In this document: in pieces, positions 23,962-28,945 of the stretch
How the letters are laid out: each line of letters begins with the position of its first letter
How positions within the stretch are numbered: the first letter of the stretch is position 1
Source of the DNA: Escherichia coli
GTDB lineage: Bacteria; Pseudomonadota; Gammaproteobacteria; Enterobacterales; Enterobacteriaceae
Direction: 5' to 3' (one strand)
Assembly (NCBI RefSeq): GCF_011045215.1
Contig: NZ_CP049201.1
Length of the DNA stretch: 64,000 nt
The notes under the pieces: model-generated
What the model was told of the DNA's origin: nothing
Seen by the model: only the letters and a program-made list of their open reading frames with translations
Databases searched by the model: none
Translations under genes and position numbers: made by a program

Positions 23962-24894
23962 GTGAGTGAAAAAAATCATACCACCCCCACGCCACACGAT
24001 GCGGCGTTCAGGGCGATGATGGAAACCCCTTCGGTTGCAAGGGATTTTCTGGAGGCTGCGTTGCCGCCGGCACAGTTACAGCGGTGCGATATGAACACCC
24101 TGAAGCTGGAGCCGGCCACGTTTGTGGATCCGGATTTGCGTCAGTATGCCAGTGACGTTCTGTGGAGCATGAAAACCACCGACGGGCGTGATGGTTACAT
24201 CTACGCGCTGACGGAACATCAGAGCTCTGCGGATCGTTTTATGGCCCTGCGCATGATGCATTATGTGCTGGCGATAATGTATCGTCACCTGAAAACGCAT
24301 AATCAGGCCCCCGTTGTGATCCCGGTGCTTTTTTATCACGGTGAACCCAGTCCGTATCCGTACAGCCTGAACTGGCTGGACTGTCTGGACGATCCGGCGC
24401 TTGGTCGTGAGCTTTACGGCGAAGGAAAGCCGCCCCGCGTCATTGATGTGGGTCTTCTTGATGATGAGGGTATCCGTCACTATCAGCAGATGGCGGCCCT
24501 GATGCTTCTGATGAAGGTCCGTCAGCGGAAGGGCGATCTGATGACGCAGCTTGACTTTCTGTCACAGTTGCTTCAGATACAGGGAACACACGATCAGGTG
24601 GTGGTTCTGTTAAACTATATGGTGAAGGCGTGCGATTCGGCTTCACCGGAATTTATACGGGTGATGGCAGAACATCTGCCCCGGTATGAGGATGATATTA
24701 TGACTATCGCTGAACGACTTGAACTGGCGGGTATCGAAAAAGGTATCGAAAAAGGCCGTCAGGAAGAGAGAGAAAAGGCGCTTGAGAAGACGCTTGAGGC
24801 TGCCCGTCGGATGCAGAAGATGGGGATGTCGCCTGAGAGTATTCAGGAGATCCTGCAGCTTTCTGATGACGAGCTGCGGAAAGCGCTCGGTTAA
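23962..24894 (+). CDS. Rpn-family recombination-promoting nuclease / putative transposase (YhgA-like)
   Basis: N-terminal hallmark TPHDAAFRAMMETPSVARDFLEAALP and PD-(D/E)XK-like core (YIYALTEHQS). AAGGAGG RBS. Confidence 0.75.
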   Translation: MSEKNHTTPTPHDAAFRAMMETPSVARDFLEAALPPAQLQRCDMNTLKLEPATFVDPDLRQYASDVLWSMKTTDGRDGYIYALTEHQSSADRFMALRMMHYVLAIMYRHLKTHNQAPVVIPVLFYHGEPSPYPYSLNWLDCLDDPALGRELYGEGKPPRVIDVGLLDDEGIRHYQQMAALMLLMKVRQRKGDLMTQLDFLSQLLQIQGTHDQVVVLLNYMVKACDSASPEFIRVMAEHLPRYEDDIMTIAERLELAGIEKGIEKGRQEEREKALEKTLEAARRMQKMGMSPESIQEILQLSDDELRKALG

Positions 24895-25079
24895 TCCGTT
24901 TCCGTGTTATCACGGGGCGGGGTGTGGCTGATATGAGAGGCCACTTTCCGCATAATCAACATCACGCCAGCTTTTACGCTGGCGTTTTTTTTGTTTACTG
25001 ATAATGAGTTGTTCGTTGAGCCTGCCGGCGCTTCTTTGCACAGTGACCGCTGTTTTATCACTGCAGAGGAGTTATCCGG

Positions 25080-25682
25080 ATGAAGATGCAACCCGGGATC
25101 TTATTTTCCCTGGTTACCCTGGCCCTGCTGGCCGGGTGTAACAGCCCACAAAAACTTCAGCAACGTGCGCCGGCCACGCCGGTACCTTCCGTCAGCGTTT
25201 CCCGCAATGTACAGCCGGTGTCACAGGATATTTATGCGCAGCCGGCACCGGAGGTGGTGCGTTACGACCGTTACCTGCTGGTCAGCACGGCACCGCAGGC
25301 CGCGCAGCGTGACCCGCTTTCCCAGGTGATTGATATCCGTATTCCGGCGTCGTTAAAGCCCACCGTGGCTGATGCCATGCGTTATGCCCTGAAACAGTCC
25401 GGTTACACGCTGTGTGTCACCGGGCCGGCCAATGGTGTGTTGTACCGCCAGCCCCTGCCCGCCGTGCAGTATCAGCAGGGACCGGTGCGACTGCGTACGG
25501 CCCTGCAGGTGATGGCGGGACCGGCCTGGCAACTGGAGGTGGATGACGTTCAGCGTGTGGTCTGCCACAGCCTGCGGGCGGGGTATCAGTTACCGGCAGG
25601 CCAGCTGGCACCCGTGTCGGTTTCCCCGGTAATCACGGCCCCGGTGGTGCAACCGGTTAAGGGAGGCTTCCTGAAAAAATGA
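25080..25682 (+). CDS. pilL: PilL-like conjugative type IV pilus lipoprotein
   Basis: Lipobox LLAGC after a signal peptide; first gene of the long plus-strand transfer cluster, as in SPI-7/PAPI-1-type ICEs. Confidence 0.65.
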   Translation: MKMQPGILFSLVTLALLAGCNSPQKLQQRAPATPVPSVSVSRNVQPVSQDIYAQPAPEVVRYDRYLLVSTAPQAAQRDPLSQVIDIRIPASLKPTVADAMRYALKQSGYTLCVTGPANGVLYRQPLPAVQYQQGPVRLRTALQVMAGPAWQLEVDDVQRVVCHSLRAGYQLPAGQLAPVSVSPVITAPVVQPVKGGFLKK

Positions 25683-26452
25683 GCAAACAACAGGAGATGA
25701 TGACACCTGTTCCGGCAGATAACCCCACAACACGCCGGTGTTCACTTCTGCGGGGTGTGGCAGTCGGCTCCCTGATCCTGCTGGTTATGGTGGCGGGCAT
25801 GGCGCTGTATCTGACAGGGCGCGGCATGCTGGCGATGGATACCCGCCTGGCAACACTGGAACAACAGCAGGGGGAGCGTCTGACACCGGCGGCGCTGGCC
25901 CCGTTACAGTCACGACTGAGTGAACTGGAGACGAAGCTGCAGACGGAGAGTGCGCGTCTGGCGCAGCTGGCCCGGCAGCCCGTTCTGACGGAGGTTCAGC
26001 AGACGCAGCTTAATGGACTGCCGGCGTCCCTTGAGCAGATTCAGGCGGCACAGAAGGCCCTTTTCCTGCGGCTGGACACACTGGCGGCACTGGCAGAGAA
26101 GTCACAGTCCCGGGCGGTTCAGTCCGAATCCCCCTCTGCTTCCGGTACTGAGAAAAAGGACGTATCCGGAACGAAAGAACCCTCTCCGGTGGTACAGAAA
26201 ATCGCCCGCCCTGCAACGGCACGCTCAGGTACGTCACACACCTCCCGTTACGCACCGTTTGTGCTGACCGGCACCGAGCGCCGGGGGGCGCTGTCATATG
26301 CGGCGGTGGCACCCCGGGGATATACCAGCCTGTCGCAGGTGGCACTGCTCGGGGAAGGTGAGAGTGTGGCCGGCTGGACACTGATTCATGCCGGTCACGA
26401 ACAGGCGACGTTCCGGGTGAACGGACGTCCGGTACAGGTCAGGGTGGAGTGA
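25679..26452 (+). CDS. conserved ICE transfer protein (TM anchor, coiled-coil, C-terminal beta domain)
   Basis: Overlaps the pilL stop; TM helix VAVGSLILLVMVAGMALYL. Confidence 0.55.
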   Translation: MSKQQEMMTPVPADNPTTRRCSLLRGVAVGSLILLVMVAGMALYLTGRGMLAMDTRLATLEQQQGERLTPAALAPLQSRLSELETKLQTESARLAQLARQPVLTEVQQTQLNGLPASLEQIQAAQKALFLRLDTLAALAEKSQSRAVQSESPSASGTEKKDVSGTKEPSPVVQKIARPATARSGTSHTSRYAPFVLTGTERRGALSYAAVAPRGYTSLSQVALLGEGESVAGWTLIHAGHEQATFRVNGRPVQVRVE

Positions 26453-27178
26453 GTGAAGATGAGACTGAAATCCCTGTTACTGGTGATGCTGATACCTGCA
26501 CTGGCGCAGGCTGCAGACCAGAACACGACCGGGACGGACGCGTCCCGCACGGATACGTCACAGCATACGCAGAGCACCACGCAGTCGCTGCAACAGCAGG
26601 CTGGCCGGTGGGGACTGAGTGAGGAGGACTGGGGGCGTTATCAGGAACTGATGGCGGGACCCCGCGGGATACAGTCGCCGGGTCTGGACCCGCTGACAGC
26701 ACTGGGTATTGAGGCCCGTACACCGGCTGAACGCCGTGCATATGCCGAAAAGTGGGTGAAGGAAGAGTATGCCCGTACGGAGAAGGAGCTGGCTTTTCAG
26801 CGGGAGGTTGATGCGGCATGGCAGCGTCTTTATCCCGGAAAGCTGCCGGTCAGTATGGGCAATACCGGTATTCTGACCGGGGACACCGGAGGCAGACTGG
26901 CGCTGTTTGTGAAGGCGAAGGACTGTGCGTCCTGTGATATCCGCCTGAGTAAGGTGCTGGCATCCGGTAAGCCGGTGGATATTTATCTGGTGGACAGTCA
27001 GGGGAAAGACGGAGTGCTTCGTCAGTGGGCACGTGAGCACAACATCCCACCAGAGAAGGTCCGCAGCCGGCATATCACCCTGAACCATGATGCGGGGCGC
27101 TGGCTGCGTTTTGGTGAGGGACAGATGCCGGTGGTACTGCAGCAGGGGGCAGACGGATGGCGCGTGGCTGCATTCTGA
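26453..27178 (+). CDS. conserved ICE periplasmic protein (signal peptide; CxxC pair)
   Basis: Signal peptide MKMRLKSLLLVMLIPALAQA; KDCASCD motif. Confidence 0.55.
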   Translation: MKMRLKSLLLVMLIPALAQAADQNTTGTDASRTDTSQHTQSTTQSLQQQAGRWGLSEEDWGRYQELMAGPRGIQSPGLDPLTALGIEARTPAERRAYAEKWVKEEYARTEKELAFQREVDAAWQRLYPGKLPVSMGNTGILTGDTGGRLALFVKAKDCASCDIRLSKVLASGKPVDIYLVDSQGKDGVLRQWAREHNIPPEKVRSRHITLNHDAGRWLRFGEGQMPVVLQQGADGWRVAAF

Positions 27179-27819
27179 GTCTTCTGCTGATGACGGGCAT
27201 GTGTCAGGCCGTTGCGCAGACCATTCCGGACGGCTATGTGCAGGTGGCCCGTGCACATGGGATTCCGGCAGAAGTGCTGTATGCCGTCTCCCTGACAGAG
27301 ACCGCCATGGCACCCGGGGATGTGGCCGGCGTCATGCAGTATTCCCGCCGCGACGGGCGTCTGCCGGATGTCTCCCGCCCCTGGCCCTGGACACTCAATG
27401 TGGCCGGGAAGGGGTACCGTTATGCCAGCCGTCTGGAGGCCTGGCAGGCACTGCAGGTGTTTCTGAAACGTTATCCGGCCAGACGCATTGATGTCGGGAT
27501 AGCGCAGGTCAATCTGGGGTGGAATGGTCATCGCTTCCCGTCAACATGGGCGGCCTTTGACCCGTACATCAGTCTTGAGACGGCGGCGGTCATTCTGCAG
27601 GAGTGCCGTCAGCGCCATCCCGACAGCTGGCTGAAGACAGCCGGTTGTTATCACCATCCTGCCGGTGGAAAGCCGGCCGCCCGTTACACCGCTGTGGTCA
27701 GACGTCATCTGGACCGGCTGTATGTCCGGTCAGCAACAACAGGTATGACGTCACGGCAGACAGCCATGCTGGCACCGGCTGCGGATTATATCTGGACAGA
27801 GCCCCGGAGGCGCGAATGA
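27157..27819 (+). CDS. lytic transglycosylase (SLT-domain), T4SS-associated
   Basis: Signal peptide, then SLT-like motifs (AVSLTETA; IDVGIAQVNLGWNG). Confidence 0.65.
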   Translation: MARGCILSLLLMTGMCQAVAQTIPDGYVQVARAHGIPAEVLYAVSLTETAMAPGDVAGVMQYSRRDGRLPDVSRPWPWTLNVAGKGYRYASRLEAWQALQVFLKRYPARRIDVGIAQVNLGWNGHRFPSTWAAFDPYISLETAAVILQECRQRHPDSWLKTAGCYHHPAGGKPAARYTAVVRRHLDRLYVRSATTGMTSRQTAMLAPAADYIWTEPRRRE

Positions 27820-28343
27820 ACAGACTGAAACGGATTATCCCTTTTACTTTTCCTGTATGGCTTCTGTTTTCAGCGAACGTCAGTGCTGAACTGACGGTGA
27901 TTGCTGACCTGGGCGGCAGGGATGCTGCTCCTTTTTTTGAGGGTATCAACCGGCAGGCACCGGCTTCTGCTCCGGTTGTTTCACCACCGCCTCTTCTGCA
28001 GGGGGAAGCCGCGATGCTGCCGGTCAGCACACCTGAAATGTCACCCGGCGAGGTGACACCACGCCCGCTTCAGCTACCGGGCATCGGTGCACTTTTCCTT
28101 GTGGGGGATGATGCGTATTCCCGCGAGTGGCTGCAGAAAAATGCTGCTGCGCTCCGGGCGCGCCATGCCGTCGGGATGGTGGTGAATGTGGCTGATGAAA
28201 ACGGCCTGCGCACGCTGCGTGAACTGGCCCCCGGCGTGGCGATGGCACCGGCATCCGGTTCTGCGCTGGCCCGCCGGTTACAGCTGAAGTCTTACCCGGT
28301 ACTGATAACGGACAACGGGCTGTCACAGGAGGTGGTGCCATGA
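27816..28343 (+). CDS. conserved ICE periplasmic protein (signal peptide)
   Basis: Start overlaps the previous stop; signal peptide MNRLKRIIPFTFPVWLLFSANVSA. Confidence 0.55.
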   Translation: MNRLKRIIPFTFPVWLLFSANVSAELTVIADLGGRDAAPFFEGINRQAPASAPVVSPPPLLQGEAAMLPVSTPEMSPGEVTPRPLQLPGIGALFLVGDDAYSREWLQKNAAALRARHAVGMVVNVADENGLRTLRELAPGVAMAPASGSALARRLQLKSYPVLITDNGLSQEVVP

Positions 28344-28945
28344 TGCCGGCACCAGTGATAACCGCAGCCCTGCTGGTCAGCCCGGTGCTGATGGCCTGTC
28401 TGATGCTCTGCCTGCTGACCGTGTTGCTGATGCTCATTCTGCGGGAATGTCGACGGAAACGGGGAGGTGTCCGGAACCGTCGCCATCAGCGTTACCGTGC
28501 CACCGCCGCCCGGGTACTGGGCAGACTGAAGACGCTGCCGGGGGATGCGCATCGTCTGAAGTATCTGCGCAAAATCAACCCGTATGTCTTCGAAGAATTG
28601 CTGTTACTGGCCCTGAAGCAGCAGGGGATGACGGTTATCCACAATCCCTGCTACAGCGGTGATGGTGGTCTGGACGGACAGGTGATGATTAACGGTGAGC
28701 GCTGGCTGATACAGGCAAAGCGCTACGGACGGACCATCCGCCCGGCACATATTGATGCCTTCGGGGAACTGCTGCGCCGGGAGGGCTGCCGGGGGTTTTT
28801 TATTCATACCGGCCGTACGGGGCCGGCCAGCCGGGCCAGGCTGACACTGTGGCCGGATATCGAACTGGTCAGCGGGCAGCGTCTGCTGAAACTGCTGAAC
28901 GGAACATTACTGACAGATGAACTTACCAGAGGGGAGCGGAGATGA
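28340..28945 (+). CDS. membrane-anchored restriction-endonuclease-like protein (Mrr-cat-like PD-(D/E)XK domain)
   Basis: N-terminal TM segment, then FEELLLLALKQQGMTVIHNPCYSGDGGLDGQVMINGERWLIQAKRY, which resembles the D...(D/E)xK core of Mrr-type nucleases. Confidence 0.5.
   Translation: MMPAPVITAALLVSPVLMACLMLCLLTVLLMLILRECRRKRGGVRNRRHQRYRATAARVLGRLKTLPGDAHRLKYLRKINPYVFEELLLLALKQQGMTVIHNPCYSGDGGLDGQVMINGERWLIQAKRYGRTIRPAHIDAFGELLRREGCRGFFIHTGRTGPASRARLTLWPDIELVSGQRLLKLLNGTLLTDELTRGERR

Follow-up and report, generated by a model that had tools for sequence, protein, structure and literature searches.

The anti-phage protein SNIPE spans the membrane once in an N-out orientation; its cytoplasmic nuclease cleaves phage DNA during injection, and removal of its anchor is toxic (bioRxiv 10.1101/2025.11.03.685801). 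Here we analyze a 201-amino-acid protein with a predicted N-terminal transmembrane helix, a basic stalk and an Mrr-type PD-(D/E)XK nuclease domain (TM-Mrr), whose gene lies in a 64,000-nucleotide stretch of Escherichia coli contig NZ_CP049201.1 (assembly GCF_011045215.1; hereafter the window) and is part of the pilL...traD operon of an integrative conjugative element (ICE) of the SPI-7/ICEclc type (mating-pair formation type G, MPF_G). The gene itself is already labeled "restriction endonuclease" in databases and hence is not new. What appears to be undescribed so far is the conserved membrane-tethered architecture, its restriction to conjugative elements, and its recurrent linkage to coupling-protein genes. 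We tentatively propose, with a confidence short of even, that the nuclease would be location gated, i.e., would reach DNA at the inner membrane alone, that this would probably be incoming foreign or competing DNA, and that its function would be in defense or competition.

TM-Mrr and SNIPE share a predicted topology, a single-gene organization, and a proposed discrimination of self from nonself by location. The SNIPE nuclease is of the GIY-YIG type and is accompanied by DUF4041, whereas TM-Mrr carries a PD-(D/E)XK nuclease without DUF4041 (only Mrr_cat was detected); moreover, SNIPE has been tested experimentally, whereas the activity of TM-Mrr is predicted. Given the different nuclease fold and the absence of DUF4041, TM-Mrr is not a SNIPE homolog; a resemblance, which is plausible if not quite an even bet, would be one of mechanism rather than of ancestry. 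E. coli Mrr and the type IV enzymes belong to the same catalytic family as TM-Mrr and have the same D...QxK configuration. E. coli Mrr, however, has an N-terminal DNA-recognition domain, in place of which TM-Mrr has a transmembrane helix and basic stalk; since the recognition domain is lacking, TM-Mrr, judged by its domain content, falls outside the type IV enzymes of the E. coli Mrr type.

The same family, architecture, and conjugative carriage as in the window protein are found in Orf16 of the IncL/M plasmids pOXA-48 and pCTX-M3 (WP_004187392.1) and in a "restriction endonuclease" gene of the IncN backbone. pOXA-48 Orf16 (195 amino acids) combines a hydrophobic helix at its N terminus with an RRRRRRH stalk and the motifs EE...GDGGID...QAKRY...HTGKT; it is ~47% identical to the window protein across residues 54 to 181 and falls in a separate clade. 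It has been listed under "Restriction nuclease / Host defense" as a prediction only (PMC12365149, Table S1). No characterization of the TM-Mrr family was found in the literature on the ICEclc type IV secretion system (T4SS), SPI-7, membrane nucleases in conjugation, transposon sequencing (Tn-seq) and CRISPR interference (CRISPRi) of pOXA-48, SNIPE, or anti-plasmid immunity.

The window protein matches the Pfam Mrr_cat model (PF04471) over its full length (65.2 bits against a cutoff of 21, profile positions 1 to 115 of 115). An AlphaFold2 model, built on 24 homologs and with a pLDDT value (predicted local distance difference test) of 83, shows the canonical alpha-beta-beta-beta-alpha-beta core that defines membership in the PD-(D/E)XK superfamily. 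In this model, E85 and E86 lie on helix alpha1 (residues 81 to 94), D112 immediately precedes beta2, and Q125-A-K127 closes beta3, and the active site as modeled is of the Mrr-type D...QxK configuration. TM-Mrr is thus a member of the Pfam Mrr_cat family and the PD-(D/E)XK superfamily, as the first-pass annotation of this DNA had proposed, with DNA cleavage itself being predicted. The solved nucleases that are structurally closest are AF1548 (1y88), the nuclease domain of the type ISP enzyme LlaBIII (4xqk), VC1899 (1xmx), Can2, and NucS, whose sequence identity to TM-Mrr is merely 9 to 14%; neither phmmer nor the family profile retrieved a related PDB sequence.

We aligned the query with 148 family representatives, each drawn from a cluster formed at 50% identity. 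In this 149-sequence alignment, E85, E86, D108, D112, Q125, and K127 each occur in at least 147 sequences. The invariant or near-invariant positions comprise these six together with Y105, R128, Y129, H156, T157, G158, T160, S178, and G179, a list that holds both for 24 close homologs and for the 148 cluster representatives. The catalytic residues, whose absence from a structure-based alignment was part of what would have led the first-pass annotation to give up its proposal, are therefore present and near-invariant. Comparison with the closest relative gave an omega of ~0.13 for the catalytic part, which indicates purifying selection, and 13 of the 16 amino acid differences between the window protein and the copy in the chromosomal ICE of E. 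coli F2_407_2_2 fall within residues 1 to 46. The query also scored 17 bits against Pfam NA-iREase1 (NACHT-associated inactive restriction endonuclease [REase]), which is below the cutoff of 27, and it keeps its catalytic residues. The NA-iREase1 and Mrr_cat models overlap, with 32 of 46 diverse family members matching NA-iREase1 at E ≤ 1e-3 (best, E = 3e-11), and this overlap may deserve curation.

The first-pass annotation had also called an N-terminal membrane helix, and this call is borne out by a Kyte-Doolittle peak of 3.1 (19-residue window) at residues 16 to 34 and by the conservation of the segment across the family. The residues ahead of the helix are all uncharged, and AlphaFold2 joins anchor and stalk into a single long helix spanning residues 15 to 65, which is followed by the nuclease core. 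A hydrophobic N-terminal segment is found in 127 of the 149 family representatives, with a median of 0 Lys/Arg residues before the helix and 9 after it, and R47, R48, H49, and R51 of the stalk are near-invariant among Enterobacterales. Given that the window protein has no Lys or Arg before the helix and 10 after it, the positive-inside rule predicts an N-out/C-in topology with the nuclease domain in the cytoplasm, an orientation that would suit access to DNA.

Part of the stalk is unusually divergent between the window ICE and that of F2_407_2_2, which are ~97% identical in DNA: at residues 36 to 46 (positions 28445 to 28477), 8 of 11 positions differ (ECRRKRGGVRN versus GGGRKQKCART). This patch may reflect a compensated frameshift or a locally hypervariable segment. 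SNIPE-like diversifying selection on the N-terminal region was considered and rejected because the signal was inconsistent, with an omega of 0.89 for the window against the F2_407_2_2 ICE yet 0.14 to 0.37 in the remaining pairs (8 pairs).

These features bear on the simplest alternative, namely, that the protein is an ordinary soluble type IV (Mrr-like) enzyme whose membrane helix is an artifact of annotation or start codon choice. The RefSeq name of the gene fits this explanation, as does a match of the C-terminal domain to the PADLOC model of a type IV methyl-directed REase (mREase_IV; E = 1.2e-5). The hydrophobic segment and basic stalk, however, recur in 127 of the 149 representatives, and the start codon overlaps the upstream stop and is preceded by an AGGAGG ribosome-binding site. 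Moreover, Pfam found no Mrr_N or other DNA-binding domain in the query or in 46 family members. The protein is also short for such an enzyme: TM-Mrr has ~200 amino acids (201 in the window) and sits in a transfer operon, and its match covers positions 166 to 291 of the 317-position mREase_IV model. We therefore regard the soluble-enzyme explanation as extremely improbable.

The open reading frame (ORF) is confirmed at the sequence level as a genuine gene rather than a chance ORF: it begins with ATG, has AGGAGG ~7 nucleotides (nt) upstream of the start, and has homologs with E values down to 1e-124. The equivalent 606-nt coding sequence (CDS) in E. coli ICEs is labeled "restriction endonuclease" in RefSeq, and the region is 97% identical to the chromosomal ICE of F2_407_2_2. 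The start codon shares the tetranucleotide ATGA (28340 to 28343) with the stop codon, TGA, of the DUF2859/TIGR03765 gene that lies upstream, and the stop codon likewise shares ATGA (28942 to 28945) with the ATG of the downstream 170-amino-acid ORF, so the translational coupling within the T4SS gene set that the first-pass annotation had noted holds at both ends. Upstream of the nuclease gene lie pilL and genes for TIGR03759, a lytic transglycosylase, and DUF2859; downstream lie those for TraD (TIGR03754) and TIGR03747. A scan of positions 24500 to 33000 detected a single promoter-like site, at 24928 to 24956 upstream of pilL, and none adjoining the nuclease gene; the closest terminator-like matches fall within upstream coding sequence. 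Since the lone promoter-like site precedes pilL, the nuclease gene belongs to the pilL...traD operon.

With E ≤ 1e-30 as the limit, an exhaustive profile search recovered 419 clusters formed at 50% identity, and almost all of them are 170 to 250 amino acids long. Mrr_cat was matched in all 46 members of the diverse alignment (A2), and no other kind of Pfam domain was found in them. Given that the hydrophobic segment is present in 127 of 149 representatives and that Mrr_cat stands alone in 46 of 46, a tether, a basic stalk, and a bare Mrr domain make up what is, by sequence, a conserved architecture and not a quirk of one locus. NCBIfam holds no model for the TM-Mrr family.

The family is carried by IncL/M and IncN plasmids, ICEs, and sphingomonad and Xanthomonas plasmids. 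A homolog is present in 2,607 PLSDB plasmid records, 78% of which are typed as conjugative, and in none of 50,697 phage records. A neighbor-joining tree built on the catalytic domain unites the ICE copies from Enterobacterales in one clade and puts the other groups adjacent to type IV coupling protein (T4CP) genes, the IncN copies, and the copy from IncL/M in separate ones. No conjugation genes were seen around three distant metagenomic representatives, whose contigs are short.

Several observations indicate whether the gene belongs to the transfer machinery proper. In ICEclc, DUF2859 (orf71178) is followed directly by traD (orf68987), with coordinates that leave no gene-sized gap (PMC10018362, Table 1), and 22 of the 24 genes of this region have been individually deleted and tested (PMC10018362). 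The E. coli LF82 ICE runs from PilL through DUF2859 to TraD without the nuclease gene, and the E. coli D7 ICE lacks it together with DUF2859 and the gene after pilL. LF82 and D7 represent further E. coli MPF_G ICE lineages with the same operon order and would be useful natural comparators. Among 5,426 complete E. coli genomes, 119 contain a DNA relative of the nuclease gene and 204 contain an MPF_G traD. The ICE of E. coli NC101 carries an in-frame deletion allele (NZ_CP072787.1, 500449 to 500733) whose 94-amino-acid product keeps the anchor, the stalk, and the C-terminal tail and has lost residues ~64 to 165, i.e., the whole catalytic core; the downstream 170-amino-acid gene is also gone, and the T4SS genes on either side remain intact. 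The NC101 breakpoints lie at similar short peptide/DNA motifs (RLKTLPGD and RLTLWPD).

On pOXA-48, orf16 contains 18 TA sites and was nonessential in both Tn-seq libraries, and its insertions were not depleted after E. coli-to-E. coli conjugation (log2 fold change, +0.71; adjusted P = 0.25); its disruption was neutral for maintenance, and the neighboring genes were nonessential (PMC12365149). The functions raised in the first-pass annotation, namely, processing of incoming or outgoing DNA at the membrane or an exclusion nuclease, stay plausible but are narrowed. Since orf16 disruption is neutral, the processing of outgoing DNA is, by analogy, unlikely to require the nuclease. The family gene on pOXA-48 follows a gene for a helix-turn-helix (HTH) XRE protein and precedes resD-parAB-nuc, and the copy on an IncN-like plasmid lies near kikA. 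The possibility that the essential XRE regulator orf20 of pOXA-48 is an adjoining repressor of a toxic nuclease was rejected, because the homolog is Orf16, which follows Orf15, and orf20 lies beyond nuc (Table S1 of the same study).

No conserved partner gene was found beside the family. A conserved partner or immunity gene was rejected because the downstream genes (170 amino acids here, Orf17 in pOXA-48, and 178 amino acids in sphingomonads) are mutually unrelated. Given the absence of the nuclease gene from ICEclc, LF82, and D7, the loss of its core in NC101, the nonessentiality of orf16, and the lack of a partner gene, conjugative elements carry TM-Mrr as an optional accessory made up of a single gene, and it is not a core MPF_G component.

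The same evidence bears on a nonenzymatic or suicide role, in which the protein would be a membrane DNA anchor or sensor that does not cut, or else a latent toxin that stress or infection would release or activate, with death of the cell as the outcome (abortive infection or postsegregational killing). The frequent matches to NA-iREase1, which is described as an inactive REase, would fit the former; the toxicity of SNIPE freed of its anchor, and the fact that the tether is the sole visible safeguard of host DNA, would fit the latter. The near-invariance of the catalytic residues, however, is hard to explain without catalysis, and the query itself remains below the NA-iREase1 cutoff. A toxin would also be at odds with the lack of a conserved antitoxin-like partner and with the tolerance of pOXA-48 orf16 to insertions amid nonessential neighbors. 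Taken together, we consider either version very improbable.

How, then, might a location-gated nuclease work? TM-Mrr would be a single-pass inner membrane protein with a very short N terminus in the periplasm, and its helical, arginine-rich stalk would hold the Mrr-type domain a few nanometers beneath the cytoplasmic face of the membrane. Since there is no DNA-recognition domain, methylase, or conserved partner, target choice would come from location, with the tether keeping the enzyme off the nucleoid and limiting its attack to DNA at the inner membrane. Given its translational coupling in the pilL...traD operon, the nuclease would be made while the transfer apparatus is being built. Its substrate would then be foreign or competing DNA in the act of entering or of docking at the membrane, candidate targets being the genomes of pilus- or T4SS-exploiting phages, DNA returning via mating junctions, and rival plasmids. 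The host of the element would be protected, and the nuclease would be dispensable for the element's own transfer. In this scheme we infer the topology, the enzymatic activity, the location-based specificity, and the identity of the target DNA.

Dispensability where tested, presence and absence among similar ICEs, and an interval shared with other variable genes lend this defense or competition function a support that we would call suggestive, somewhat under an even chance; the distribution is typical of element-borne accessory or defense cargo. A more specific proposal, which by analogy with SNIPE we rate as rather unlikely, is that TM-Mrr is the PD-(D/E)XK counterpart of SNIPE on conjugative elements, sitting where the envelope opens into the cytoplasm, perhaps docked beside the T4CP, and destroying incoming DNA without harm to the nucleoid or to the strand that the element itself sends out.

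The genomic neighborhoods, for which our counts rest on the best 80 loci of the genome scan, raise a different possibility. In Enterobacterales MPF_G ICEs, DUF2859 is followed by the TM-Mrr gene and 0 to 2 small genes in all 36 loci, with traD ≤2.4 kb downstream in 35 of them. In two divergent MPF_G elements, from Shewanella and Photobacterium, TM-Mrr lies 14 to 45 bp upstream of traD, with other genes between DUF2859 and TM-Mrr. At ~22 loci of sphingomonads and other alphaproteobacteria, the order is ribbon-helix-helix (RHH; trwA-like), TrwB-like T4CP, TrwC relaxase, TM-Mrr, and a VirB1-like gene. Bacteroidota and Micavibrio copies directly adjoin T4CP genes, Serratia and Rhizobium copies lie 1.6 to 3.2 kb from one, and in the MPF_G region of a Serratia plasmid TM-Mrr immediately precedes traD. 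Other copies adjoin the plasmid backbone genes KorB or KfrA, 13 loci have no T4CP within the flanks examined, the family gene lies away from the T4CP on IncL/M pOXA-48 and an IncN-like plasmid, and the T4CP is not adjacent in Xanthomonas and IncP-like copies. Since the T4CP-adjacent copies fall in separate clades of the tree, adjacency to coupling-protein or relaxase genes arose repeatedly, though it is not universal.

These arrangements, together with translational coupling within the traD operon here, make a helper role beside TraD the main and a serious rival. A tethered nuclease acting on the element's own DNA could clear or trim at the T4CP, end a round of transfer, or resolve stalled or double-stranded intermediates, with a benefit in certain hosts or conditions alone. 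The gene is nevertheless missing in ICEclc, which is functional, as well as in other MPF_G ICEs of E. coli, insertions in pOXA-48 orf16 leave conjugation unreduced, and the IncN, IncL/M, Xanthomonas, and IncP-like copies are not beside a T4CP. Nicking and termination are, moreover, already carried out by the relaxase, and cargo hotspots in tra operons would yield an equal gene order. On balance, we judge a helper function unlikely.

The neighborhoods also yielded observations of a more local kind. The interval from DUF2859 to TM-Mrr in Shewanella and Photobacterium (loci L063, 7485 to 10004, and L075, 8241 to 9905) contains genes for an 839-amino-acid HATPase_c_3 protein and a 554-amino-acid PcfJ-like protein, and the DUF2859-traD interval in related ICEs thus looks variable in content, which suggests an insertion hotspot with variable cargo. 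The sphingomonad module is exemplified by locus L061 (4487 to 10944), with ~20 similar loci (L043 to L079), and ends in a gene for a secreted protein of 170 to 180 amino acids that, by its GPLQIN...YHSPT motifs, looks like a VirB1-type lytic transglycosylase; Pfam gave no match. On the Klebsiella pneumoniae IncR plasmid pM169-3.2 (4980 to 8766), an IncN-derived fragment abutted on its 5' side by IS26 carries the family gene directly upstream of an EcoRII-like pair of cytosine methyltransferase and type II endonuclease genes; given the origin of this fragment, the family gene neighbors a classical restriction-modification system in IncN backbones.

Conjugative carriage is also what would be expected of a weapon in competition between elements, i.e., a fertility-inhibition or exclusion-like nuclease that cuts rival or hitchhiking mobilizable DNA at the coupling protein, or a second copy of the element as it enters. 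The location would suit an attack on DNA that docks at the membrane or enters through it, carriage of the gene is almost confined to conjugative elements, and the neutrality of orf16 for the plasmid's own transfer would be expected. Osa and PifC, accessory proteins of plasmids that oppose other elements at the step of the coupling protein, provide precedents and a conceptual analog (PMC5696584). Between these proteins and TM-Mrr, we found no sequence or fold relationship, nor any sign that TM-Mrr targets the T4CP. Osa has a ParB/Srx-type fold, which is unrelated to that of TM-Mrr.

Mrr-type enzymes are known to cut double-stranded DNA, whereas the transferred strand is single stranded and piloted by the relaxase. 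TM-Mrr also has no element-specific module that could distinguish rival from self DNA. Characterized exclusion systems are not known to be nucleases. The ICEclc transfer operon is expressed in transfer-competent cells alone, and placement in such an operon argues against expression in ordinary, nontransferring recipient cells. For this reason classical entry exclusion is not favored, and we regard a weapon of this type as quite improbable.

Other findings weigh against a location-gated defense nuclease itself. The nuclease activity, membrane localization, and defense role of the family are predictions. A search against PADLOC-DB v2 did not place TM-Mrr in a known anti-phage system, giving domain-level matches only (PDC-S02, 8e-6; mREase_IV, 1.2e-5; ZorD, 9e-3; LmuA, 0.03); even the best of these is partial, and all fall in the shared nuclease domain. 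No recognizable defense island surrounds the gene, and its position beside coupling-protein or relaxase genes in many lineages fits a transfer-linked role at least equally well. In SNIPE, contact with DNA and with the tape-measure protein of the phage depends on an extra domain, DUF4041, to which TM-Mrr has no counterpart beyond its basic stalk. The NA-iREase1 matches of 32 of 46 members, to a model named for inactivity, count here as well, the query being below its cutoff. Finally, if TM-Mrr is expressed as in ICEclc, protection would be confined to rare transfer-competent cells.

The ICE copy in the window is interrupted close to the nuclease gene (Table 1). A 262-amino-acid hypothetical gene lies between the 170-amino-acid ORF and traD, its start overlapping the stop of the former and its stop overlapping the start of the latter, and an IS21-family element is inserted 41 nt inside it, with istA at ~29592 to 31259, istB extending to 32031, and a target duplication of 4 bp, TTCC (matches in NCBIfam: IS21 transposase, E = 1.7e-85; IstB, E = 1.3e-74). 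The nuclease gene is intact despite this insertion just downstream. Since the operon is interrupted 3' of the nuclease gene, the insertion is likely polar on traD, so that traD expression and transfer may suffer in this copy, which is hence not the one to prefer for experiments. A second indel lies at window positions 35843/35844, downstream of the TIGR03747 gene, where ~1.7 kb of small hypothetical genes is missing relative to the F2_407_2_2 ICE (locus L001, 18202 to 19919). The 170-amino-acid protein encoded immediately after TM-Mrr gave zero Pfam, NCBIfam, or PADLOC matches, and its gene is present in just a few related ICEs.

Table 1. Coordinates of the TM-Mrr gene, its parts, and other operon features in the window
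Feature	Coordinates	Strand	Basis
Membrane-tethered Mrr-type nuclease gene, 201 aa	28340..28945 (stop codon included)	+	ORF list, Pfam, RefSeq, homologs
N-terminal transmembrane helix (signal anchor), residues 6-34	28355..28441	+	Hydrophobicity; AlphaFold2 long helix
Arginine-rich juxtamembrane stalk (RECRRKRGGVRNRRHQRYR...), residues 35-60	28442..28519	+	10 K/R vs 1 D/E in residues 36-60
Mrr_cat PD-(D/E)XK nuclease domain, residues 76-186	28565..28897	+	Pfam Mrr_cat, E=7.5e-18
E85-E86, acidic catalytic-site residues, helix alpha1	28592..28597	+	No variation in alignments A1 and A2; Glu at 148/149 and 149/149
D108-G-G-L-D112, GDGGxD loop before beta2, metal-binding Asp	28661..28675	+	D108 147/149, D112 148/149; strand 114-117 from AlphaFold2
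Q125-A126-K127, (D/E)xK motif in its Mrr-type QxK form	28712..28720	+	cag-gca-aag; Q 147/149, K 147/149; end of strand 120-127
DUF2859 / TIGR03765 (PFL_4695 family) ICE protein, upstream gene	27816..28343	+	Pfam DUF2859, E=1.4e-49; NCBIfam TIGR03765, E=8.6e-40; coordinates mapped from E. coli F2_407_2_2 ICE RefSeq CDS
170-aa hypothetical membrane protein, downstream gene	28942..29454	+	ORF list; two hydrophobic segments
pilL, first operon gene	25080..25682	+	NCBIfam TIGR03748, E=1.8e-38
traD, type IV coupling protein, same operon	32879..34975	+	NCBIfam TIGR03754, 1090 bits; start mapped from E. coli F2_407_2_2 RefSeq traD
IS21-family insertion (istA, istB) within next operon gene, just 5' of traD	29492..32130	+	Collinearity break vs F2_407_2_2 ICE; NCBIfam

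If TM-Mrr is active, then pOXA-48 IncL/M plasmids, IncN-type resistance plasmids, and SPI-7-type ICEs carry a nuclease at the point where DNA crosses the inner membrane. Should the location-gated reading hold true, ~2,600 sequenced plasmids, pOXA-48 and IncN-type plasmids among them, and SPI-7-type ICEs would carry an overlooked immunity or competition function, and the Mrr fold would have given rise to a second, independently evolved form of location-based discrimination between self and nonself. pOXA-48 makes orf16 testable, since genetic tools and Tn-seq baselines already exist for this plasmid. Such a nuclease might affect the entry of plasmids and phages into carrier cells, or the efficiency of transfer in natural hosts, and would thereby matter for how resistance spreads and for phage therapy.

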